A stretch of DNA of 64,000 bases, from contig CAZEWJ010000001.1 in assembly GCA_964515875.1 (NCBI GenBank), forward strand, positions 88,740-152,739, read 5' to 3'. Below are positions 8,763-35,687 of this stretch, piece after piece (the first letter of the stretch is position 1; the number at the start of each line of letters is the position of its first letter). The DNA is from an uncultured Ignavibacteriaceae bacterium. GTDB taxonomy: Bacteria; Bacteroidota; Ignavibacteria; Ignavibacteriales; Ignavibacteriaceae. A program made the position numbers and the translations under genes. The notes under the pieces were generated by a model. The model saw only the letters and a program-made list of their open reading frames with translations. It ran no database searches and was not told where the DNA came from.

Positions 8763-11619
<2,857 letters not shown>

Positions 11620-11651
11620 TATTAATTAGTCTATTTGTACAAAATAAAAGG

Positions 11652-11792
11652 AACTCACTCTAATCTCTCTCTTAAAAAAGAGAGAGACTTATTGGTTAGG
11701 AAACAATAAAAAATATTTCTTGACAGAATATAAACATTAAGTCATAAGCTTTTATAAGCCCTTCTCTTTAGAAGAGAAGGGTTGGGATGAGC
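11652..11792. repeat. Two hairpin mini-elements in the ligA 3' intergenic region
   Basis: tctctctct-taaaaa-agagagaga (11664-11687). cccttctctt-tag-aagagaaggg (11759-11781) followed by ttgggatgagc. Confidence 0.5.
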
Positions 11793-11863
11793 TCCAAAGT
11801 TTTAAAAAAATATTTTCTAAACTAAACCCAACAGGTTTTGTTTAAAGATTAAAATAAAAACGA

Positions 11864-25215: not shown

Positions 25216-25628
25216 TGAAGATTGCAAAAGAATTCAGATGGGAAATGGGGCACCGATTACCCGAACATTTTGATAAATGCAAAAGTATTCATGGTCATTC
25301 TTATAAAATGATAATTGAGCTTGAAGGTGAAGTAGATGAATCCGGAATGGTGATGGATTATTATGAAATAAAGAAAATAATTAATCCAATAATTGAAATG
25401 CTCGATCATGCTTTTATGGTTTATAAAGAAGATAAAGAGATAATCTCTTTCCTCAAAAAAATGAAATCAAAAATGGTGGTAGTTGAATTCCAGTCAACAG
25501 TTGAGAATATCTGCAAACATTTTCTTAATGAGATAAAGAAAATCAGCCTGCCGAAAAATATTAAGAAAGTTTCAGTCCGAATTTATGAAACTGTGGATGA
25601 TTATGCTGAGGAATCTATTCAATTATGA
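25215..25628 (+). CDS. queD: 6-carboxy-5,6,7,8-tetrahydropterin synthase
   Basis: FRWEMGHRL, HGHSYKM and LDH motifs. TGATG junction with queE. Confidence 0.85.
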   Translation: MKIAKEFRWEMGHRLPEHFDKCKSIHGHSYKMIIELEGEVDESGMVMDYYEIKKIINPIIEMLDHAFMVYKEDKEIISFLKKMKSKMVVVEFQSTVENICKHFLNEIKKISLPKNIKKVSVRIYETVDDYAEESIQL

Positions 25629-25867
25629 ATGATACAAGTCCCGAAGCAAAAAAAATCCAGGATGAACTATTTGCCAAACTTTCCGGTGAAGAAAGATTAT
25701 TGATGGGGTTGGAAATGTTTGAAACCGCCAGAAAGATTGTACTATCATCATTCCCTGAAAACCTTCCTGAAAATGAAATAAGAAAAAGATTATTCCTTCG
25801 CTTTTATGGAAATGATTTTTCTGATGAGGAAAAAGAAAAGATTATGAAGAGAATGGATGAGATTTAA
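25625..25867 (+). CDS. Conserved-looking hypothetical protein (80 aa)
   Basis: ATGA overlap with queD. Helical. No function recognised. Confidence 0.45.
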   Translation: MNDTSPEAKKIQDELFAKLSGEERLLMGLEMFETARKIVLSSFPENLPENEIRKRLFLRFYGNDFSDEEKEKIMKRMDEI

Positions 25868-26028
25868 TAAGTTTTAACCCAAAATCACGATCTCGATCTC
25901 ACCAGTTTAATATTTTTATAACATTTCCCAATAATCACACATTTATTAAAAATCTTACATATTAAATTTGACTTACATTTATAAATTTTCTAACTTTACA
26001 AACGTTCATAATACATAAGGAGAAAGTT

Positions 26029-26259
26029 ATGGAAGTAGGATATGTGACATCTAAGGGGCAGTTGGTTATACCATCTAAAATGAGAAGAAGATATGGGATA
26101 AAACCGGGCACACGAGTTAATTTTTTTGAAGAAGATGACGGAATTAAAATAATTCCGGTTACTTCAGAAATAATCGAGGCAAATAAAGGATTTATGAAAA
26201 CAGGAGGGAAATTGTTGAAAGCCTTAATGGATGAGAAAAAGAAAGAGCGAGAGCTATGA
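26029..26259 (+). CDS. AbrB/SpoVT-family antitoxin (VapB-like)
   Basis: KGQLVIPSKMRRRYGIKPGTRV swapped-hairpin motif. AAGGAGA Shine-Dalgarno. 4-nt overlap with the PIN gene. Confidence 0.75.
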   Translation: MEVGYVTSKGQLVIPSKMRRRYGIKPGTRVNFFEEDDGIKIIPVTSEIIEANKGFMKTGGKLLKALMDEKKKEREL

Positions 26260-26654
26260 AGAAATATGTATTAGATAGCTACGCACTCCTGGCTTATGCT
26301 GAAAATGAAAAGGGAGCTGACACCGTAGAAGATTTACTTAAAAAGACACTTAATGATCAGGCTGAACTATTTCTCTGTGTAATTAACTGGGGGGAAATGT
26401 ATTACATAGCATTGCGTGAGGGTGGAAAGGATAGAGCAGAGCTATATAAAAATACTTTTGCCCGCTATCCGATAACTATTGTTGAAGCAAATAAAGAACT
26501 TACTCTGCAAGCAGCCCAGTACAAAGCATTTCATAAAATTTCTTATGCAGATGCCTTTGCGGCTGCTCTGGCAAAAATGAAAAAGGCCTTGCTTGTTACC
26601 GGAGACAAAGAGTTTAAAGCTTTGGAATCTGAGGTTAAAATTAGTTGGATTTAA
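26256..26654 (+). CDS. PIN-domain ribonuclease toxin (VapC-like)
   Basis: N-terminal YVLDSYALLAY (Asp), central WGEMYY region and C-terminal YADAFAAALA...LVTGDKEF acidic residues, as is typical of PIN domains. Confidence 0.8.
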   Translation: MKKYVLDSYALLAYAENEKGADTVEDLLKKTLNDQAELFLCVINWGEMYYIALREGGKDRAELYKNTFARYPITIVEANKELTLQAAQYKAFHKISYADAFAAALAKMKKALLVTGDKEFKALESEVKISWI

Positions 26655-26660
26655 AGTTCT

Positions 26661-28892
26661 ATGATATCAACTGATCAGAAAACAGAAATTATTGAATTAA
26701 TTAGAAGCACATACTTTTTTATTGGCAAAGAATCTGGAACCCAACTCAATGAAAATTCTTTATTCGGTAAAATCCCAGTAAATAGGTGTAAATGGCCAGT
26801 AAGATTTGTTCACGCTTTAACAACTTGCAAACAAATTGTATTCCTAAAAGATTTATTGAATACAGATTATGAAGAATTTTTTAAACTGAGTAATTGTGGA
26901 AAGAAAACTATTCATGATGCAAGGCAAACGGTTATTTTTTTTGTGAATAACAATTTTAATGTACTTTTAGATGATAGAAGCGCTGGTGGGGTAGTTTTAG
27001 AGGTGCCGGAATCAAAGGAAAAAGAAATTGTAACAGAAGAGAAATTTCATGGGTCAATTCAGAATAGTGAAGTAAACTCAACATTTAATTTTGTAACAGC
27101 CATTGAGGATTTATTTTCAGAGATTAATAAAAGAGACTTAGAAATTGCATTACAAAGATGGAGTTATGGAAAATTAATTCATTATGCGGAGATTGGGAAA
27201 AAATATAATATAACAAGAGAAAGAGTCAGACAAATTTTATATCAGATAATAAAAAATCTTAAGACTAAATACAGATATTATCTTAATGAGTGGGGACAAT
27301 TGCTTTTGGATAGACTGGTTCAGCAACCAAAACCAATAAATAAAGATATTCTTACAGAGTATAATCTTAAATATTCACCATATCTTTATTTAGGTTTATT
27401 TTCAGAAGTATTTGAAGAGGTTCCGTTCGATAAGTTTATGCCTAAAAGTTTTGAGCAGTTAAATAAACGTAAAATTATTTCTAATCCAAAGTGGGCAAAA
27501 ATAGTAGAAACATTAAATAACATTCCTCCCATGCTTGGACAAATAACACCCTCAAATATAGTCTCTATACTCTCATCAAAAGGATTTAGTCTTTCAGATC
27601 AATTGTTATGTTTTAAAATTATTTTGGGATTAAAAAAGTATTTCTTCTTCGAAGAAGGGACCAATTATTTTTTATTGCGTAGAGGAGGTATTAGAGATAT
27701 TTCTTATACAATTCTTAATAGTAGTGAAATACCCTTGAGTATTGATGAAATTTTAAGTGAAATGCGTAAGTATTACTATGATGGACCAAAATATGACTCA
27801 TTAGGTTCAGTTATTGGCAATATAAAACAGGATGAAAAAATAATACAATTTGATCGGTACAAATTTGGGATTGAGAGACATTTTTCATATTCCAGAGACG
27901 AATGGTTATTAATTTGTTCAATTGCTAAGATATTTTTGTCGGAAATAAAACGACAAAGTTATATTACTGAAATATTAGAAAAAGTATGTACAGACTTTCC
28001 TCTAATAAAATCGAAATATGAGCTGGTATATATTTTAAGAACTGATCCAGAAATAAAGGACCTTGGATTTTTCAATTTCACTCTCACTTCTTTCAATCAA
28101 GAAGAAAGAATAAAAGTAACTGAACTAATAAAAGAAATATTTAATAAAGAACCCAGCATTAAACATTTTCACGAAATAAGCGAGAAATTAAAAGAAAACA
28201 GATATATAAGAGATGAAGGGATTGGAACTTTATTAAGTAATCAAGATTTTCTTGAAAAATATCCTGGTGGATTTTATGGGCTTAAGGAACTTGCTGCCTA
28301 CAACCGAATAGCACTCTCAAAGAGAGAGAAATTTATTTGTTACTTAGTAAGCCAATATTTTTTCCCTAATACGGAAGTAAATAGGGTTCTAAACTATTTT
28401 GATTCGGAAGAGTTAAAACAGAATGCTTCTGACGTAATATATTCTTCAAACACATTATATATATATTCTTCTGATATGAATATTGATATAATATTAAATA
28501 ATAATTGGAGTGTAATTAAAAAGGTTAAATGTTTATTGTTCAATATTGATGAACCAATTTTCGAAGAGCAGTTAAATTGGATGTTAAAGGACTTGGGAAT
28601 AACCGCAGAAAAAAATGACTTTTACAAGATTAGAAATGAAACAACAATTAATTATTCTAATCACAAATATTCTTTTATAAAAACAGAACTTCCTCCCATA
28701 GAGTTAATAACAGTGCTAGATGATTGTTACAATTTTATAAATGATTCAGCTAGCTCTTTTAACTTAAATGAAATGTATGAACTAGTAAAAAATTACGTTT
28801 ATGATGAAATTAATTTTTCTCAATTCATGGTGGCGGTTAAGGAAGACGAAAGGTTTATAGTTACTGATAATAATCTAGTGCTTATTAAATGA
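26661..28892 (+). CDS. Multi-HTH protein: RNAP alpha-CTD-like HhH + sigma-70 region-4 HTH + three or more winged-helix (HARE-HTH-like) repeats
   Basis: aa 46-91 PVRFVHALTTCKQIVFLKDLLNTDYEEFFKLSNCGKKTIHDARQTV compares with the E. coli alpha-CTD. aa 157-201 ...HYAEIGKKYNITRERVRQILYQIIKNLK compares with RpoD 4.2 ([26 protein letters not shown]). There are repeats of about 60 aa downstream. Starts 6 nt after the vapC stop. Confidence 0.7.
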   Translation: MISTDQKTEIIELIRSTYFFIGKESGTQLNENSLFGKIPVNRCKWPVRFVHALTTCKQIVFLKDLLNTDYEEFFKLSNCGKKTIHDARQTVIFFVNNNFNVLLDDRSAGGVVLEVPESKEKEIVTEEKFHGSIQNSEVNSTFNFVTAIEDLFSEINKRDLEIALQRWSYGKLIHYAEIGKKYNITRERVRQILYQIIKNLKTKYRYYLNEWGQLLLDRLVQQPKPINKDILTEYNLKYSPYLYLGLFSEVFEEVPFDKFMPKSFEQLNKRKIISNPKWAKIVETLNNIPPMLGQITPSNIVSILSSKGFSLSDQLLCFKIILGLKKYFFFEEGTNYFLLRRGGIRDISYTILNSSEIPLSIDEILSEMRKYYYDGPKYDSLGSVIGNIKQDEKIIQFDRYKFGIERHFSYSRDEWLLICSIAKIFLSEIKRQSYITEILEKVCTDFPLIKSKYELVYILRTDPEIKDLGFFNFTLTSFNQEERIKVTELIKEIFNKEPSIKHFHEISEKLKENRYIRDEGIGTLLSNQDFLEKYPGGFYGLKELAAYNRIALSKREKFICYLVSQYFFPNTEVNRVLNYFDSEELKQNASDVIYSSNTLYIYSSDMNIDIILNNNWSVIKKVKCLLFNIDEPIFEEQLNWMLKDLGITAEKNDFYKIRNETTINYSNHKYSFIKTELPPIELITVLDDCYNFINDSASSFNLNEMYELVKNYVYDEINFSQFMVAVKEDERFIVTDNNLVLIK

Positions 28893-29476
28893 ACAAAAAA
28901 TTATCAAAGAAAGAAAAAACATTACTTACACTTTATAAAATTTCAAGTGGTAGAAAAAAAACTGTTCATTATGAGGATTTGTTAGTTGAAACATTTCTTT
29001 CTTATAAAAATGATTTTCAATTAAAACTATATCCTAAATATCCCGATTCTGATGTATTTAGATATATTATCTATTTCCAATTAAAGCCTGCTGGCTTAAT
29101 AAGAATAGCAAACAAACAATGTATTCTAACTGATTTAGGAATCAAATTTTCAAAAGAGTTATTAGGTGAGGGAAGAGATAATTATAATGCAGATAGATTA
29201 TTAATTAATCAAGAAATAGAGAGATTAATTAATTTGCAAGGTTTTTTAATGTTCAAAGAAAAAAAACAAGAAAAAATTATAGATCAGGACTTTTTTGATT
29301 TTTTTAAATCAAGTGTGCGTACAAAACCATTAGAATTACTTGGAAATATCAGCCAAATAGAAAGCGAAATTGATGGGTATTCAAAAATGAATAAAAGACT
29401 TTCAAATTTGTTATACGAATATTCGATCTTTTTGAAGAAAAAATTTTTCCATTTATATGAAGGAATAAAAAAATGA
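28889..29476 (+). CDS. Small protein (195 aa) with a putative N-terminal winged helix; unknown function
   Basis: 4-nt overlaps with both neighbours. aa 8-92 look like a wHTH (KEKTLLTLYKIS...VHYEDLLVETF...KPAGLIRIANKQCILTDLG). The rest is helical. Confidence 0.5.
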   Translation: MNKKLSKKEKTLLTLYKISSGRKKTVHYEDLLVETFLSYKNDFQLKLYPKYPDSDVFRYIIYFQLKPAGLIRIANKQCILTDLGIKFSKELLGEGRDNYNADRLLINQEIERLINLQGFLMFKEKKQEKIIDQDFFDFFKSSVRTKPLELLGNISQIESEIDGYSKMNKRLSNLLYEYSIFLKKKFFHLYEGIKK

Positions 29477-31233
29477 GAGTAATAGCTGAGAAACCATACA
29501 TTCATGAAAATGTTTTGGATCTCTTTGGAAAGGAATTTAAGTTTGACCATGCTAAGGGTATTGCAGAATTATTAAAGAATTCAGTTGATGCATACACTTT
29601 AGAAGATATTTCGGACGAAGAACAACAAATTTTCGTCTTGTTTTCTTTACAAAAGGAAAATATTAAGTCAATTGCTGTATTAGATTTTGTAGGGATGACA
29701 AGAAAAAAGATAGATGAAGCATACAAAAGATGGTTTGATCCTTCTGCTTCAAAGATTGATGCTGAAGCAATTAAAAGAGAAAAACAAACATTGGGTGGAC
29801 ATGGAAATGGTGGCAAATTTTATTTACGTGAAATGTTTAAATACTCAAAGATTGTTACTTACAGGAATGGTAAACTTAATGTTTTTGGGTTTGATATAGA
29901 TAAGCAATATGGAATTTACCATGGTTATAATGATATTCAATCTAATATAGATGAAGCTGTAATATCATCAGGTTTAGAGAAATATCCCCATATTTTTAAT
30001 CATATTAAAGAAATTATCATTAAGAAGAAAAAATTTAGTATGGTAATTGGAGAAGAACCAAAATCTGTTCATGGAACAAATAATATTAAAATATTATTTG
30101 ATAAGTTGACTTCACATCCTCAAGCTCGAAGAATTATCCAAAGGAAAAAAGTTTACTATTCAACAAACTATCTTTCAAATCCAATTCAGCTTACAGTACC
30201 AAAATTAACTCCTAAAAAAAACTTTGAAAAACCTTTCTATTTTGTTTGCCCACAAAAGTTGGTTTATGGTGATGAAATTATAATGTATAAAGACCCTTCA
30301 GAACAAATAACATTGATTTTGCATACATCTGAAGAACCATTGAAGGGTTTCAAGTATAAAGGTCTCAACAGTATTGATTTTCTTGGGGAAGTTGGTGTTT
30401 TAGCCAACTATGAGATTCATGAGCTTGGGGATTATTTTAAATCTTTTTTATATAGTGATTTTGTATATGGGGAGTGTTTCTGCCCAATTATGCAAGAAGA
30501 AGATTATGTTCGGAATGATAGAAGCAAATTTTCAGATGGACCAAAGAAAGAAGTATTATTAGAATGGATTCGTAGCTGTATTGAGGATGTTTGTAATAAA
30601 ATGGAAGAACAAGTGAAAAAAGAACACAAACATCTTAACCTTAAGCAAACATCTGAACTTAATAAGTTACTTAATAAGTGGAAAAACAGATTTTTACAAA
30701 AACTCTTAAAAGAAAGATTGGGAGGTGTGGGCAATTTTGGTGTTGATGGTTCTAAAGAAGTAGGATGGAGTGCTTCTGGTAAAGGAACATCTAAAAATAG
30801 AAATGAGAAGAAGGTCGGAGATAGAGGTGGAACAGAAAAGAAAAGAGGGAGTACTTTCCCTGAAGTTTTAATCTCTGGAATAGACAGTGATCCGGAAACT
30901 GGTGAAATTGTTGAATGCGACCCAAGACATAACGCTACATATCAAAGACCCATAGATGTAAAAAGGGGAATTTATTGGATTAATACTTCAAAAAAATTTG
31001 CCCAACAAATATTAGAAAAATTTGGGCCTGACTCTGTTAGATGGCGTGAATATTTATTCCAAAGATATGTGGATATAATAGTAAAAGAATATCTGATAGA
31101 TATTGGGAAAGTTGAGGTCAATCTTACTAGTGATTTCGTTACTAATGAAATTGAAAAGAAGATATCTGAAATTCTGGATAGTGCTGTAGAAGATTTAGAG
31201 AGATTTTTATTTCAAGAGGAATATAATTTGTAA
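29473..31233 (+). CDS. GHKL (Bergerat-fold, MORC/Hsp90-like) ATPase with an unknown C-terminal region
   Basis: N-box AELLKNSVDA (E32, N36, D39). G1-like VLDFVGM. G2-like LGGHGNGGKFY. Gly/Lys-rich linker at aa 416-460. Confidence 0.65.
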   Translation: MRVIAEKPYIHENVLDLFGKEFKFDHAKGIAELLKNSVDAYTLEDISDEEQQIFVLFSLQKENIKSIAVLDFVGMTRKKIDEAYKRWFDPSASKIDAEAIKREKQTLGGHGNGGKFYLREMFKYSKIVTYRNGKLNVFGFDIDKQYGIYHGYNDIQSNIDEAVISSGLEKYPHIFNHIKEIIIKKKKFSMVIGEEPKSVHGTNNIKILFDKLTSHPQARRIIQRKKVYYSTNYLSNPIQLTVPKLTPKKNFEKPFYFVCPQKLVYGDEIIMYKDPSEQITLILHTSEEPLKGFKYKGLNSIDFLGEVGVLANYEIHELGDYFKSFLYSDFVYGECFCPIMQEEDYVRNDRSKFSDGPKKEVLLEWIRSCIEDVCNKMEEQVKKEHKHLNLKQTSELNKLLNKWKNRFLQKLLKERLGGVGNFGVDGSKEVGWSASGKGTSKNRNEKKVGDRGGTEKKRGSTFPEVLISGIDSDPETGEIVECDPRHNATYQRPIDVKRGIYWINTSKKFAQQILEKFGPDSVRWREYLFQRYVDIIVKEYLIDIGKVEVNLTSDFVTNEIEKKISEILDSAVEDLERFLFQEEYNL

Positions 31234-31254: not shown

Positions 31255-32058
31255 CTATTCTTGTTCCTTCACTTTTCCCGAAACAATCTTTTCAACCATT
31301 CCAGGTCTGATCAAATTCAACCATAATAATATTTTTAATTTTTTGGGGATAACAAGTTCTCTTTTTCTGTTTACCATTCCATTAAGAATTTTTCTGCTGC
31401 ATTCCTGAAGACTTATGGATTCTTTGCTATGTTCTTTTTTAGATTCACCGATCTTTTTCCCATTTTTATCGAAAGCATTTTTTCTTAAATCGGTTCCTCT
31501 AAGCCAATGAGGTTTAACCAGCAAAACATCTACGCCTTTATCTTTTATTTCAATTCTTAAAGTGTTCAAAAATCCGGTTAATCCATGTTTGGAAGCAACG
31601 TATCCTGAATGATAAGGAACTGCAATTTCTCCCTGGATAGATGAGATTGCGGTTATCAAACCTTTACTTTTTTTTAAATAAGGGAGAAAAAGGTGCGTTA
31701 GACGAACTGCACTCAGGTAATTTGTTTCAATTAATTTTTGAAACAAAGATAGATCAGTAACTTCTTCAAACTTTGCCCACATACTTATTCCGGCATTAAG
31801 AACTAAGTGATTAATTGAACTAAAATTATTTATTGTTGTTTCAACTAATCTTTTACAATCTTCCGGTTTAGTTACATCTCCCTGAACGGCAATTGCTTTA
31901 GCCCCTTTTTCATTGCAGGATACTACAACTTCATTCAGTTTATCAATGTTCCGGGAAAAGAGAATTAAATTCGGTTTAAAAGATGCAAGTTCATTTGCAA
32001 GAGCAGCACCAAGTCCTGAAGAAGCCCCTGTAATAACAATATTCTTATTTAAAAACAT
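31255..32058 (-). CDS. Short-chain dehydrogenase/reductase (candidate acyl/alkyl-DHAP reductase)
   Basis: ITGASSGLGAALA cofactor motif and catalytic YVASK. Last gene of a four-gene operon. Confidence 0.8.
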   Translation of the reverse strand: MFLNKNIVITGASSGLGAALANELASFKPNLILFSRNIDKLNEVVVSCNEKGAKAIAVQGDVTKPEDCKRLVETTINNFSSINHLVLNAGISMWAKFEEVTDLSLFQKLIETNYLSAVRLTHLFLPYLKKSKGLITAISSIQGEIAVPYHSGYVASKHGLTGFLNTLRIEIKDKGVDVLLVKPHWLRGTDLRKNAFDKNGKKIGESKKEHSKESISLQECSRKILNGMVNRKRELVIPKKLKILLWLNLIRPGMVEKIVSGKVKEQE

Positions 32059-33790
32059 TTTCTAAATCTTTTTTCTGTAAGCCCCAGTCAAATGGTTTAT
32101 CAATCGGCGGAATAATCTTATCAGGATTCATAATATTATTTGGATCCAGAGAATGCTTCAATCCTCTAACCGCTTTTATTCCGGTTTCAGAAATATCATC
32201 TTTAATCCAGGGCATATGTTCAAACCCAACTGCGTGATGGTGTGATAAAGTAGCTCCTCCTTTTATAAAAGCATCTTCAGCCGCTTTCTTGATTGAGAGA
32301 TATTGTTCAAGCTCGTATCCAGAAACTTGCTGGCAGCCAAAAGTAAAATAAAGACTCGCACCAGTATGATACGTATGGCTTATATGACATCCTAAAAATC
32401 CTGTTTTTACTGTTTTCTTAATTGACTTTTCAATCGCTTCCACAGTGGAATAATACAGTGGAAGAAGATTACTCCATACTGTTGAAGTTTCACTAACATC
32501 AGCCATTATATTTCTATCCATAACATAATCGCGAAGGTAAGGGAAATCATATTTCCCTTTTTCAAAAGCTTTGCCTGGTTCAGTGCCAAGATTAAAAGCA
32601 CCATGCTTTTTATAAATTTTATTCACTTTTCTTTTCATATCAGAAAAATTTTCTTTATCTCCTTCAAATACAGTAAGCAAAAGGCAAACTTTATCAAAAT
32701 CAAACTTCTTAATATTCCTTAAATAAGATTTAACAACTTTGCCAAGTAAAGATTTTAATGATGATGACGATTTTGATCTGTAAGCAAAAGATAAAGCTGT
32801 TTTACCAGGATCATTCAATCTTGTAACAACCGGGGCACAATATTTTTCAACACATTCATAAACAGCATTAACTCCGCTTTCAAAGTCGGGGAAAAGATAT
32901 CCATAAGGTACTCTGTATTGAGGAAGTTTATGCACGCGCATTACAGCTTCTGTAATTACTCCAAGCGTTCCTTCACTTCCGATACAAATATGGTTAACAT
33001 CAATTCCGTTAGAAGATTTAGGTACAGTGCGTGTAACTATTGTGCCGTTTGGTGTAACCATTCGGAGAGAGAGAACCATATCTTCAATCTTTCCATATTT
33101 ATCACTCTGCATTCCCGCTGATCTTGTAGCAATCCAACCACCAATAGTTGAATACTCAAATGAATCCGGAAAATGACCAAGTGTAACTCCATACGAATTA
33201 AGCTGCTTTTCCATTAAAGGGCCTAAAGCACCGGCTTGTATTCTTGCTGTATTTGATTGTTTATCAACGCTGATAACTTTATCCATCAGCTTCATATCAA
33301 GAGAAACTATCATTCTTCCGCTGCCGTTATTTGCTTCAAGGCATCCGGCAATATTTGAACCTGCACCGAAAGGGATAACAACTACATCAAAATCTAAAGC
33401 AGCTTTTATTATGTTTGAAATTTCATCTTCAGATAAAGGATAAATAACACAATCTATAGATGCATTAATAATACCGTTTCTTATTCTCCAAAGATCTCTG
33501 AAACTTTTTCCGTAAGAATGAATTACTCTCTCTTTCTTATCAAATTTAAATCTATCAGGATCAATAAAAGATTTTATATGATTAAGGAATTTATCATTTA
33601 ATGTTTGCTGAGGAAGTTCTATTTCTTCAAATTTGAATGGAGGAGTTAATTTAACTTCGCCTTCAATTCCCACAACATTTTTAATATAGGGCCAAAGCTC
33701 AGGTTTATCATCCATATTGAACCCGATATTTTCGCCTCCCCATCCCCACCATTTCATTTGCTCTACGCTAAGCATTCCTCTCACCATCAT
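32045..33790 (-). CDS. FAD-linked oxidase, alkyl-dihydroxyacetonephosphate synthase (AGPS)-like
   Basis: N-terminal MKWWGWGG motif, which I recall as typical of AGPS homologues. FAD-binding PCMH-type domain (VIPFGAGSNIAG). 581 aa. Confidence 0.7.
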   Translation of the reverse strand: MMVRGMLSVEQMKWWGWGGENIGFNMDDKPELWPYIKNVVGIEGEVKLTPPFKFEEIELPQQTLNDKFLNHIKSFIDPDRFKFDKKERVIHSYGKSFRDLWRIRNGIINASIDCVIYPLSEDEISNIIKAALDFDVVVIPFGAGSNIAGCLEANNGSGRMIVSLDMKLMDKVISVDKQSNTARIQAGALGPLMEKQLNSYGVTLGHFPDSFEYSTIGGWIATRSAGMQSDKYGKIEDMVLSLRMVTPNGTIVTRTVPKSSNGIDVNHICIGSEGTLGVITEAVMRVHKLPQYRVPYGYLFPDFESGVNAVYECVEKYCAPVVTRLNDPGKTALSFAYRSKSSSSLKSLLGKVVKSYLRNIKKFDFDKVCLLLTVFEGDKENFSDMKRKVNKIYKKHGAFNLGTEPGKAFEKGKYDFPYLRDYVMDRNIMADVSETSTVWSNLLPLYYSTVEAIEKSIKKTVKTGFLGCHISHTYHTGASLYFTFGCQQVSGYELEQYLSIKKAAEDAFIKGGATLSHHHAVGFEHMPWIKDDISETGIKAVRGLKHSLDPNNIMNPDKIIPPIDKPFDWGLQKKDLENVFK

Positions 33791-34517
33791 TCTTTAATTC
33801 ATGAACTCTTTTCTCAAGCTCTTCAGTTATTTTTTTGTAAGCCTGAAAGTTATTCCCTTCAGAGTCATCATTACAAACATATTCGCTTGGTAAAATAGGC
33901 TTGCCAATCCTTATTGTAATTCTTGAAGGCCTCATAAAAATTTTTTCTTTTGGCCAGGCGTTAAATGATCCTGTAATACAAGCAGGGACTATTTGCAAAC
34001 CAAGTTCAGCGGAAATCATTGCCAGTCCTTTTTTGAAAGGATAAATCTTTCCGGTTAATGACCGGGTTCCTTCAGGATAAATTATGAGGCTGCGGTTTCC
34101 TGCTCTTGTAAATTCTCTGCAGGCTGCAAGATAATTGATCATGGATTTCCTGTCAGCTTCCCTGTCAATAGGTATTAAGTTCATCAGCAGGTTAAGGTAA
34201 TATTTTCTTTTATCGTTATCAAAAAAATAATCTTTAGCTGCCATCATTGCAAAGTTTTTAAAAGGCAATCCTGATGCAACCATTAAAATCCCGCTGTCCA
34301 TATGGCTGTTATGATTGCTGCAAAAAATAAACGAAGAAGATTTTGGAATATTTTCTCTGCCAATTATTTTTAATGGACAATAAACTGTAAAAAGGATTTT
34401 ACAATAGATTTCAAAAATTTTTTTTATTGATTTACCAAGAAGATCGGGTTTTTTCAAAACATGAGAATACTCAGGAGGAACTATTGCACTCTCCAGTTCA
34501 GAACGAATTGAAATCAC
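33768..34517 (-). CDS. PlsC-type (lyso)phospholipid/DHAP acyltransferase
   Basis: HX4D motif NHNSHMDSG and IYPEGTRS motif. Confidence 0.8.
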   Translation of the reverse strand: MISIRSELESAIVPPEYSHVLKKPDLLGKSIKKIFEIYCKILFTVYCPLKIIGRENIPKSSSFIFCSNHNSHMDSGILMVASGLPFKNFAMMAAKDYFFDNDKRKYYLNLLMNLIPIDREADRKSMINYLAACREFTRAGNRSLIIYPEGTRSLTGKIYPFKKGLAMISAELGLQIVPACITGSFNAWPKEKIFMRPSRITIRIGKPILPSEYVCNDDSEGNNFQAYKKITEELEKRVHELKNDGERNA

Positions 34518-35687
34518 TCATTTTCTCCCATACTTGGCATGTGAAAAAGCAAATTCATCAGAAACAATAGCACCACCAAGAGATAATTCAAGTGCGAGAG
34601 CACAGGCGCATACAATCTCGGCAAGCTTCTTTGAAGAATCTTTGCCGGTACATCCTAAAAGCTCAAGATTTTTTCTTGCCTGTTTTAATCTTGTACCACC
34701 GCCAACCGTACCAACTGTTATTGAAGGCATTGTAATAGTTGCATAGAGATCATCAGAATTTCTTATTTCGTACGAGATACTTCCTCCTGCATTCTCAACA
34801 ACACTTGCAACATCCTGACCTGTTGCCATATAAATTGCGGTAAGAGCATTTGCTACATGCATATTCATTCCGAATATACCTGCTTCCTGCGAACCTCTGG
34901 TACATTGTATCCAGCCGTCAACATATTCTTTTGCAGTAACTCTTAGCAGTCGCCTTAGAAACCTTCCTTCAATAAGAGCACTTCCTACAACATAATGACT
35001 GCGCCCAAGAAGCAACGATTTATAAGCAGGATTTTTATCTCCATTAAAGTTGCTCTCAATATAATATCTGAAACCAGAATCGCATTTATAGTTCTCATTA
35101 ATAAACCTGCAGGCTTTGTGTGTAGCTATTGTAACCATATTTTGTCCGGAAGCTTCGCAAGTGTTATAAACAAAATCCAGAATAACACTGTTCTGAGAGG
35201 GGTATTTATCAATTCTTAAAAGTTTGCCGTAATTTGTAGTGGATTCTGCTTCTCTTTTAATCACTTCAAAATGTTCATCAATCCAGGAAGTAAACGGTTT
35301 GCTCTTATCAATATCTTTAAAAATAAATATTGGAGATCTTGATAATTCCTGTTTTATATGATTTGTTTTAATGCCTCCGGAAAGATGTGTAAGAAATAAA
35401 CCTCTCGTCATAGACATTGTTAAAGTCCCTTCGAGAGTGCAAAGAGGAATGTAGTATTCTCCTTTAGCATATGTACCACTGATTAATAATGGTCCGGCTA
35501 TAGCCAAAGGAAGATGCATAAAACCAACATGATTTTCGATTATTCCCCTGAAATCTTCCGGGTTATCAGGACCAGCTTCATTAAGGTGAAAACCGGTTTT
35601 CTTTTCCAGCCACTCCTTTCTTTTTTCAGTATCTTCTTTTTTATATCCGCGTGGCGGCAGAATTTCGCTCATTAGTGTCTTCTCCAA
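34518..35687 (-). CDS. HMG-CoA reductase family protein (soluble, 389 aa)
   Basis: IENHVGFMHLPLAIAGPL, CTLEGTLTMS, GDKNPA, TVGTVGGGT and C-terminal SHAKYGR, corresponding to HMGR catalytic-region motifs. Confidence 0.75.
   Translation of the reverse strand: MEKTLMSEILPPRGYKKEDTEKRKEWLEKKTGFHLNEAGPDNPEDFRGIIENHVGFMHLPLAIAGPLLISGTYAKGEYYIPLCTLEGTLTMSMTRGLFLTHLSGGIKTNHIKQELSRSPIFIFKDIDKSKPFTSWIDEHFEVIKREAESTTNYGKLLRIDKYPSQNSVILDFVYNTCEASGQNMVTIATHKACRFINENYKCDSGFRYYIESNFNGDKNPAYKSLLLGRSHYVVGSALIEGRFLRRLLRVTAKEYVDGWIQCTRGSQEAGIFGMNMHVANALTAIYMATGQDVASVVENAGGSISYEIRNSDDLYATITMPSITVGTVGGGTRLKQARKNLELLGCTGKDSSKKLAEIVCACALALELSLGGAIVSDEFAFSHAKYGRK

Follow-up and report, generated by a model that had tools for sequence, protein, structure and literature searches.

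The subject of this analysis is a block of five genes in a 64,000-nucleotide stretch of DNA, the window in what follows, from an uncultured Ignavibacteriaceae bacterium (GenBank assembly GCA_964515875.1, contig CAZEWJ010000001.1, positions 88,740 to 152,739 of the forward strand). The five open reading frames (ORFs) form one operon, which opens with a toxin-antitoxin (TA) pair of the VapBC type and continues with three genes that we call A, B and C. Genes B and C are the invariant core of an unnamed family, and the cassette as a whole is horizontally mobile. On balance, and with modest confidence, we read the block as a mobile VapBC-led operon that carries a MORC-like, DNA-targeting conflict module. 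Its parts are arranged as follows.

25953-25998, + strand: conserved promoter/operator-like block, with TCTTAC at 25953-25958, TTGACTTAC at 25968-25976 and TAACTTTA at 25991-25998
26017-26023, + strand: ribosome-binding site AAGGAGA, 5 nt before the first ATG, read from the sequence
26029-26259, + strand: AbrB/MazE-type antitoxin (vapB-like), 76 aa, SpoVT-type fold
26256-26654, + strand: PIN toxin (vapC-like), 132 aa
26661-28892, + strand: gene A, 743 aa, predicted multi-domain DNA-binding protein
28889-29476, + strand: gene B, 195 aa, winged helix plus helical bundle
29473-31233, + strand: gene C, 586 aa, MORC/paraMORC-like GHKL ATPase

The first-pass annotation, made by a model from the sequence alone, had given the ORF coordinates, three 4-nt overlaps and one 6-nt gap, and all of these were matched exactly when the sequence was read again. 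The overlaps are ATGA in each case (26256-26259, 28889-28892 and 29473-29476), and the junction between the PIN gene and gene A is TAA, six nucleotides and ATG. The surroundings that it described are confirmed as well: the ribosome-binding site, the AT-rich 161-nt gap upstream of vapB (25868-26028), the housekeeping genes on both sides (radical-SAM QueE-like and PTPS/QueD upstream; SDR, FAD-linked oxidase, acyltransferase and HMG-CoA reductase downstream), and the 21 nt that separate the end of gene C from the stop of the convergent SDR gene. It had also seen no flanking direct repeats, and around the five-gene block we found no convincing direct or inverted repeats or att sites. A scan for sigma-70 promoters and terminators gave results at or below the shuffle expectation in this AT-rich DNA and was uninformative.

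The assignment of gene C to the GHKL (Bergerat-fold) ATPases is borne out by conserved residues and by structure prediction. In alignments of 16 and 55 sequences drawn from several phyla, E32-x3-N36-x2-D39, D71-x2-G74 and G108-GHGNGGK115 are invariant, and motif I, motif II and the Gly-rich ATP lid that characterise the superfamily are all present. The Pfam family HATPase_c_3 is matched with an E-value of 1.8e-4 and 22 bits, below its gathering score of 25. With the AlphaFold2 (AF2) model of the protein, whose predicted local distance difference test score (pLDDT) is 80.5, Foldseek returned MORC3 as the best match (2.8e-10), followed by MORC2, SMCHD1 and Hsp90, and reached E-values of 1e-10 to 1e-8 for many GHKL structures; the alignments to the GHKL+S5 modules of MORC3, MORC2 and SMCHD1 extend over 400-456 columns. 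In the model, gene C has the succession of GHKL and S5 domains that is typical of the MORC/paraMORC clade, and its predicted domains map onto the gene as follows.

29536-29907, + strand: Bergerat ATP-binding fold, gene C residues 22-145, placed by the invariant columns and Pfam HATPase_c_3
30028-30507, + strand: S5-like transducer domain, gene C residues ~186-345, mixed alpha/beta in the model and covered by the Foldseek matches
30541-30849, + strand: long helix, gene C residues 357-418, followed by a linker, residues 419-459, both from the AF2 model
30850-31230, + strand: family-specific C-terminal domain of 127 residues, gene C residues 460-586

The long helix has 62 residues, and the Gly/Lys-rich linker behind it is disordered (pLDDT < 50); in a subfamily of about 750 aa (P0198, P0201, P0214, P0223, P0239) a Big_2 Ig-like domain replaces this linker. 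The C-terminal domain carries a set of invariant or near-invariant residues (D471, D473, D483, R485, R492, D495, YWINTS at 501-506, R531 and E539) and is confined to the C-terminus of this GHKL family, with 124 matches among 1.84 billion representatives. It has no relative in Pfam or the PDB, and since it is exclusive to the family, other architectures give no clue to its function. Two readings of gene C as a nuclease were tried and rejected. For a PD-(D/E)xK or Toprim reading of 'VLISGxDxDP', the AF2 context is helical or loop and the Toprim glutamate is absent, and for a GIY-YIG reading of 'GIYWINTS' there is no YIG strand and no matching fold.

A total of 683 homologues of gene C were found, and a scan of one genome per species yielded 188 loci with a relative of gene C, 80 of which were examined. 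Their hosts are Ignavibacteriota, Verrucomicrobiota, Acidobacteriota, Planctomycetota, Solirubrobacterales, Nitrospirota, Gammaproteobacteria-labelled bins and many members of the Candidate Phyla Radiation (CPR)/Patescibacteria, at least eight phyla overall. Of the 77 loci with room for a gene before C, 73 have B immediately upstream, mostly at gaps of -4 to +5 nt. Genes of the A family occur in 40 loci; relatives of the window have them upstream of B, CPR and Nitrospirota downstream of C. A further 22 CPR loci have in place of A a shorter protein with a DnaA_C helix-turn-helix (HTH) and Sigma70_r4. Partner frequencies were counted on the 51 loci with complete flanks, and one or the other of these sigma region 4 (sigma-r4) partners is found in 38 of them. 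The pairwise-identity matrices of A and B, moreover, follow that of C, with a contribution from host phylogeny. The A-B-C triad is therefore a co-conserved unit and not a chance adjacency. The first-pass annotation had proposed that the three downstream genes form a unit and had suggested a comparison of the neighbours of gene C homologues, and the proposal stands.

Gene B had been described as a small winged helix-turn-helix (wHTH) protein, and its AF2 model (pLDDT 90.6) agrees, with a winged helix at residues 7-92 and a C-terminal helical bundle; the Foldseek neighbours are weak (E of at least 0.05) and of the wHTH type (MukF, PadR, MarR). No family in Pfam, PADLOC or NCBIfam matches gene B, and neither B nor C has a match among PDB chains in single-sequence or profile searches. 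The N-terminal winged helix of B recurs in protein P0145, fused there to a DUF4928 domain (hhalign probability 99.5%); this domain matches REase_II, a PADLOC model for type II restriction endonucleases (REases), at 3.7e-6. DUF4928 has been reported within an ATPase-Vsr-DUF4928-Dcm cassette (PMC9035990). A PD-(D/E)xK or Toprim reading of gene B itself (PD53, E109-x2-R112, D132-x-D134) was rejected because the AF2 context is helical or loop and not the required beta-sheet.

Gene A had been read as a protein with an alpha-CTD, a sigma-r4 domain and multiple winged helices. This reading holds at the level of the family, from which the domains can be mapped onto the window protein.

26766-26924, + strand: alpha-CTD-like helix-hairpin-helix, gene A residues 36-88
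27108-27275, + strand: sigma-70 region 4 HTH with recognition helix ITRERVRQI, gene A residues ~150-205, from Pfam
27696-27875, + strand: HARE-HTH-like winged helix 1, gene A residues 346-405, aligned to the HARE-HTH match of L022
28122-28280, + strand: HARE-HTH-like winged helix, gene A residues 488-540, aligned to the match of L041 (E 2.7e-9)
28719-28889, + strand: C-terminal HARE-HTH-like winged helix, gene A residues 687-743, aligned to the match of L013 (E 2.9e-7)

Across the family, Pfam finds Sigma70_r4 in 40/40 proteins, RNA_pol_A_CTD in 34/40 (best 7e-40) and HARE-HTH in 23/40. The window protein matches Sigma70_r4 at 4.6e-6, above the gathering score, and it matches the NCBIfam models sigma70-ECF (1.7e-7) and MzaA (4.1e-7) along its sigma-r4 stretch only. 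Its alpha-CTD match is weak (0.037) and aligns column for column with above-threshold RNA_pol_A_CTD matches in L017, L005 and L041; HARE-HTH-like winged helix 1 has no Pfam match in the window protein itself. The sole invariant residues of the family, R166, R186, E187, R188, R190 and Q191, lie in the sigma-r4 domain with its recognition helix, and we take them to correspond to the DNA-contacting residues of sigma-70. A sigma factor requires both region 2 and region 4; region 4 alone is present in the window protein and in 39/40 homologues, and gene A, judged by these domains, is therefore not a sigma factor. In the A homologue of L033 (11802-13232) the alpha-CTD + sigma4 module matches the PADLOC models PglW (1.4e-12) and MzaA (2e-10), the PglW match being an internal stretch at profile positions 800-980 of 1403 (BREX type 2/Pgl). 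This suggests that the module is common to several methylation-linked defence systems.

A C5-cytosine methylase gene (Dcm; Pfam 1.8e-71) accompanies the family in 35/51 complete loci and a Vsr endonuclease gene (Pfam 2.5e-26) in 23/51; the divergence of both likewise follows that of C. The gene order often leaves no space for anything else, as in L022, which reads VapBC-A-B-C-Dcm-Vsr. No conserved helicase was found in the family neighbourhoods, and no recognisable REase in the relatives linked to Dcm and Vsr. The first-pass statement that the triad has no methylase among its partners thus applies to the window and fails in most other lineages of the family. Of ten large flanking ORFs that were sampled, four belong to restriction or conflict systems (type III Res, GmrSD_N, SLFN-type helicase and KAP NTPase). 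Because of the linkage to Dcm and Vsr, the fusion of the B-type winged helix to DUF4928, the module that A has in common with PglW and MzaA and the restriction genes in the flanks, B-C (with A) therefore holds the place of the restriction, non-self-acting arm of a conflict system of the restriction-modification (R-M) kind.

Other genes recur beside this core. A 75-aa protein with no family match stands immediately upstream of B in 34 loci of CPR, Nitrospirota and related groups (for example L032 1906-2133 and L061 9113-9340), in the position that VapBC occupies in the clade of the window, and in Solirubrobacterales the same place before B is held by a protein with ribbon-helix-helix (RHH) and Mrr_N domains. 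Directly downstream of C, five methylase-less Ignavibacteriota loci (L005 5011-5745, and L006-L009) have a 244-aa HNH protein (Pfam HNH 1.1e-6). Its 180-aa N-terminal domain is faintly SRA/YDG-like, a likeness that no tool confirmed; if it is real, the HNH protein would be a modification-dependent nuclease that replaces Dcm-Vsr. Large serine recombinases lie within a few kilobases of B-C in 17 loci, mostly of CPR (L032 13074-14594, L045, L063, L067, L068 and L073 are examples), and hint at carriage on integrative elements.

The arrangement seen in the window is found again in 10 other loci, whose flanks are unrelated: the same five genes stand in the same order and are joined by overlaps. The closer relatives of the window are L001-L009 and L017, whose C proteins are 52-56% identical to that of the window, and L087, at 70% identity. 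Every locus of this clade, Ignavibacteriota-type or L087, starts with an orthologous VapBC, which also leads the cassette in the Verrucomicrobiota loci L021, L022 and L026, two of the three keeping Dcm-Vsr; vapB orthologues stand at the head of the cassette in 13 loci. In L087 the five overlapping genes have cbb3-oxidase/FixGH genes on one side and pabAB on the other; as this context is an unrelated one, the cassette moves as a whole. The flanking genes do not cluster between loci, and the low GC content of A and B also fits a mobile cassette.

The VapBC pair itself has the form expected of a type II TA module. The antitoxin matches Pfam MazE_antitoxin (7.4e-13) and the NCBIfam AbrB domain (7.2e-12), and the toxin matches Pfam PIN (2.1e-17). 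Residues D7, E47 and D98 are invariant in 12/12 cassette-linked PIN proteins, and D116 is kept in all but that of L009, which is truncated. A small antitoxin gene overlapping a downstream PIN gene with its acidic residues kept thus predicts a VapBC pair. When the 200 nt 5' of the AbrB gene were aligned for 10 VapBC-led loci, only one block could be aligned, (G/T)CTTAC - TTGACTTAC - ~15 nt - TAACTTTG, in flanking DNA that is otherwise unalignable. The element TTGACTTAC occurs once in the window and is found upstream of AbrB in 9 loci, including the Verrucomicrobia locus L021 (6222-6230). The block lies about 50-65 nt upstream of AbrB in L001-L003, L006-L009 and L087, and L017 has a degenerate copy, CTTGATAAA. 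We regard it as a candidate cassette-borne promoter in which the direct repeat is a candidate VapB operator, and presumably of the -33/-7 type found in the Fibrobacterota-Chlorobiota-Bacteroidota (FCB) group (-33 TTG / -7 TAnnTTTG). TTGAC is a -35-like sequence and the expected target of a sigma region 4 such as that of gene A.

We infer DNA targeting, clamp action, a defence role and a role for VapBC, which would fit together as follows. A and B would bind DNA and recruit C, acting as an ATP-gated dimeric clamp, to invading DNA. The invariant sigma-r4 helix of A, the winged helix that B has in common with an REase-like family and the proposal that HARE-HTH domains are readers of modified bases in R-M systems (PMC4738411) are the reasons for assigning DNA binding to these two proteins. 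In the methylase-linked relatives, cytosine methylation would mark self. In the clade of the window, methylase and Vsr would have been lost and the module joined instead to VapBC, which may provide autoregulated transcription and addiction, the role that we favour for this methylase-less clade. By analogy with PrrC/RloC and with HEPN-paraMORC fusions, VapBC could plausibly also supply a toxic RNase output. As A, B and C contain no recognisable nuclease, the output may be one of several: cleavage by the private C-terminal domain of C, cleavage by a partner of the Vsr or HNH type at loci that have one, release of the toxin, or nuclease-free clamping.

Several observations weigh against reading the operon as a conflict system of this kind. 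All 80 genome loci come from metagenome-assembled genomes. Gene A is absent or undetected in 13/51 complete loci, and shared host phylogeny inflates the Mantel correlations of pairwise-identity matrices with that of C (A 0.92, B 0.85, Dcm 0.72, Vsr 0.65). Searches with Pfam, PADLOC, NCBIfam, the PDB and Foldseek recognise neither a nuclease nor a helicase nor any other effector in A, B or C. Dcm and Vsr are absent from the window, L001-L009, L017 and L087 within the sequence available, and the 64-kb window has no methylase; a sole weak match, considered as a Dcm elsewhere in the window, falls inside a WbaP-like sugar transferase and was rejected. With no linked methylase in this clade, R-M logic cannot apply unchanged. 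The first-pass annotation had proposed a check for a defence neighbourhood; the flanks of the window are housekeeping genes and not a defence island. Searches with gene C found nothing in 72,556 plasmid and 50,697 phage records and only six matches in the 2.9 million viral contigs of IMG/VR; the gene set is not phage- or plasmid-borne, and this rarity is probably why catalogues built on cultured genomes missed the family. The only strong homologue in the viral collection is in L081 (IMGVR_UViG_3300015360_003303, 10001-11794), a high-GC contig with 37% identity over the full length. Finally, VapB and VapC are 80-92% identical to those of L002, L008 and L009, loci at which the identity of A, B and C is only 32-55%, and the GC content of vapBC is 36-38% against 24-28% for A and B (28.3% and 24.0%; window 33.1%). 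Because both measures differ from those of A, B and C, VapBC may have a history that is, at least partly, separate; the contrast in identity implies either very different evolutionary rates or recombination within the cassette.

These differences bear on a possible though doubtful alternative, that VapBC is an independent, hitch-hiking addiction module which stabilises the island and supplies a promoter and sends no signal to A-B-C. AbrB/PIN pairs are abundant and self-sufficient type II TA modules. A hitch-hiker would account for an identity pattern across loci that is sharply unlike that of A, B and C, for the contrast in GC content (36-38% against 24-31%) and for the 40/51 complete family loci that have no VapBC. 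It accounts less well for a pair that, in L087 as in all Ignavibacteriota-type loci, keeps one position and strand and adjoins A at a distance of 6 nt or with an overlap, and whose orthologue accompanies the cassette in a second phylum. VapBC is moreover inversely related to Dcm, which is absent in 8/11 loci with VapBC as against 8/40 others, a count that reflects few independent events, and couplings of GHKL proteins to RNases have precedent (PMC3710099). The first-pass annotation had offered an independent module or an effector arm as its two choices; the fixed place of VapBC at the 5' end in the clade and its recurrence in Verrucomicrobiota speak against an incidental neighbour. That VapBC is linked to A-B-C functionally, beyond synteny, is in our judgement about evenly balanced.

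We think it rather improbable that the module, instead of killing, is a nuclease-free MORC-like clamp that silences or compacts DNA, with A targeting promoter-like DNA, or else, at loci with Dcm and Vsr, a MutL-like helper of Vsr in very-short-patch repair. The closest structures are indeed the eukaryotic silencing ATPases MORC2, MORC3 and SMCHD1, A, B and C lack a detectable nuclease, the recognition-helix residues TRERxRQI of the A sigma-r4 domain are invariant and the family has Dcm and Vsr as linked partners; according to work cited within PMC2292703, E. coli MutL has a stimulating effect on Vsr. The clade of the window, however, has neither Dcm nor Vsr, so a role as repair helper cannot explain it, and the patchy distribution, the varying flanks and the association with TA, serine recombinase and restriction genes are a better fit to a mobile conflict element than to a housekeeping factor of chromatin or repair.

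Very unlikely, in our view, is the idea that A is a decoy or guard which mimics those peripheral parts of RNA polymerase (RNAP) that are hijacked by phages, so that an attack on it would switch on the GHKL ATPase, free VapC and lead to abortive infection. It draws on the homology of all three recognisable domain types of A to RNAP accessory modules (HARE-HTH being RNAP delta-like), on the presence of the alpha-CTD+sigma4 module in PglW and MzaA of other defence systems and on a PIN toxin whose residues suggest that it is catalytically intact. The argument is nevertheless purely architectural, most family members have no toxin gene, and the conserved sigma-r4 residues, which we take to be the DNA contacts of sigma-70, favour DNA binding over mimicry. 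That the five genes are chance neighbours or wrongly called ORFs, which has in its favour only the general frequency with which TA pairs lie beside unrelated genes, is refuted by the comparative data (the identical order in 10 other loci, the B-C adjacency, confident AF2 models of B and C and residues strongly conserved across phyla) and retains a negligible probability.

The linkage of the family to Dcm-Vsr places it in a class that was predicted in 2008, the R-M-like systems of the paraMORC type (Iyer, Abhiman & Aravind 2008, PMC2292703). In that paper, GHKL families of paraMORCs are predicted to belong to Dcm/Vsr R-M operons, paraMORCs in general are proposed to act by loading an ATP-gated GHKL dimer on non-self DNA, and the modules are predicted ancestors of the eukaryotic MORC silencing ATPases. 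Compared with paraMORCs as described there, gene C has the same order of GHKL, S5 and a family-specific C-terminal extension, and its family has the same patchy, laterally mobile distribution and linkage to cytosine methylases, Vsr and occasional HNH; it differs in that the gene C family has no linked superfamily II (SFII) helicase or RE-fold nuclease and that the window variant has no methylase. In its neighbourhoods the family has Dcm and Vsr at the frequencies given above and HNH at some loci, and the clade of the window has neither methylase nor Vsr. The signatures described in the same paper (ExxxH in the S5 domain of paraMORC2, a C-terminal E-D-ExK of PD-(D/E)xK type in paraMORC3, TIR in paraMORC4 and a C-terminal HxH in paraMORC5) are absent from gene C, whose only invariant histidines are H26 and H110 and which has no Pfam nuclease or TIR match. 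They set it apart from paraMORC2-5; paraMORC1, which was defined in 2008 with a distinct C-terminal extension and HNH neighbours, lies outside this comparison, and the occasional HNH neighbour of our family is compatible with it, not diagnostic. The partners B, with its wHTH, and A, with sigma-r4, alpha-CTD and HARE-HTH, do not appear among the retrieved passages of that paper.

Thus, the system is probably an uncatalogued variant of the predicted paraMORC-type anti-invader class. What is new is the partner set A + B, the fact that no nuclease can be recognised and, in the window, a configuration led by VapBC and lacking the methylase. The suggested profile check, run with PADLOC and NCBIfam on the window proteins and on distant relatives, found no named system and matches at the level of sigma-r4 only, and neither B nor the C-terminal domain of C is covered by a model in PADLOC v2, Pfam or NCBIfam. 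The earlier label 'possibly undescribed' is therefore right in that PADLOC, NCBIfam and Pfam hold no named system that fits, and too strong in that the class had been predicted in 2008 (PMC2292703).

Among experimentally validated anti-phage proteins, VcSduA (Shedu type I-D, a paraMORC3) is such a case (PMC12137116), so this kind of system is real. It resembles gene C as a GHKL ATPase, active in phage defence and modelled as a dimeric clamp, and differs as a single protein with a C-terminal DUF4263 nuclease of the PD-(D/E)xK type (PMC12137116); gene C has no Pfam or PADLOC match to DUF4263 and comes with partner genes. The HEF_HK/Response_reg_2 pair (Bellieny-Rabelo et al. 2021, PMC8011034) likewise joins a small partner to a paraMORC-derived HATPase_c_3 protein beside C5-cytosine methylases, but B is a winged helix and not receiver-like, C has no second HATPase_c or DHp-like region, and neither B nor C has a Pfam match to PF19191 or PF19192 at E<=1. 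In the Ymh-HEPN-paraMORC proteins, HEPN RNases fused to paraMORCs have been proposed as analogues of PrrC/RloC (Anantharaman et al. 2013, PMC3710099). What they have in common with our operon is the pairing of an ABC or GHKL ATPase with an RNase toxin, in an R-M setting and as a proposed second-line suicide defence; here, in contrast, the RNase would be the PIN protein of a separate VapBC pair and not a fused HEPN, and the coupling is putative.

The VapBC pair resembles other type II modules in its AbrB-fold antitoxin, PIN toxin, 4-nt overlap, intact acidic residues and predicted repeat-bearing upstream promoter, and differs from them in being in one operon with, and syntenically fixed to, three downstream genes. 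The eukaryotic proteins MORC2, MORC3 and SMCHD1 are the best structural matches of C; their GHKL+S5 modules dimerise under the control of ATP, bind or trap DNA and act in methylation-linked silencing. Their identity to gene C is only about 11-14%, and gene C has no CW, chromo or SMC-hinge domain and belongs to a prokaryotic operon.

MZA is a named anti-phage system whose MzaA has a sigma-70 region 4 that is matched by that of gene A. Only a stretch of about 80 aa in sigma-r4 matches MzaA (PADLOC 0.011; NCBIfam 29 bits, the cut-off being 800), the remaining Mza models do not match, and no PADLOC model matches B or C. MZA also includes a GHKL/MutL-like ATPase. The block is not a type II R-M system, having no methylase in the window and no recognisable endonuclease in the operon, and its resemblance to BREX type 2/Pgl is limited to the alpha-CTD+sigma4 module of the A homologue that matches PglW; BREX type 2/Pgl has the kinase PglW, the methylase PglX, PglY and PglZ, and no other Pgl model matches.

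Two features next to the cassette deserve mention. An 80-aa ORF (25625-25867) overlaps the stop of queD by 4 nt, has weak, sub-threshold Pfam matches (ChaN-like, 9e-4) and has no counterpart beside the cassette at other loci; it is probably part of the que operon and not of the cassette. On the other side, the convergent operon on the - strand (31255-35687) comprises the SDR, FAD-linked oxidase, acyltransferase and HMG-CoA reductase genes. The oxidase has 581 aa, a size like that of alkyl-DHAP synthase, and the operon is possibly an ether-lipid/isoprenoid cluster with no relation to the cassette.

In the literature searched, the experimental testing of paraMORCs comes down to one nuclease-fused member, VcSduA. 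The family described here is widespread in uncultured phyla, with many CPR loci, and occurs in two natural configurations, one linked to methylase and Vsr and the other to VapBC. A comparison of the two could reveal by what means a GHKL clamp tells self from non-self and whether it acts through cleavage, silencing or the release of a toxin, a question that bears on how MORC silencing originated. A bolder version, to which we give a low probability, is that of a nuclease-free, MORC-like immune or epigenetic machine, in which protein A, built from RNAP-type modules, directs the GHKL clamp to promoter-like, unmodified foreign DNA or senses an attack by phage on the transcription machinery, with silencing as the outcome or, in the VapBC clade, release of the PIN RNase. 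If true, this would be a prokaryotic counterpart, and a possible ancestor, of methylation-linked MORC silencing that works without DNA cleavage. If the operon is active, an uncatalogued system would be added to the defence-annotation tools that now miss the family.

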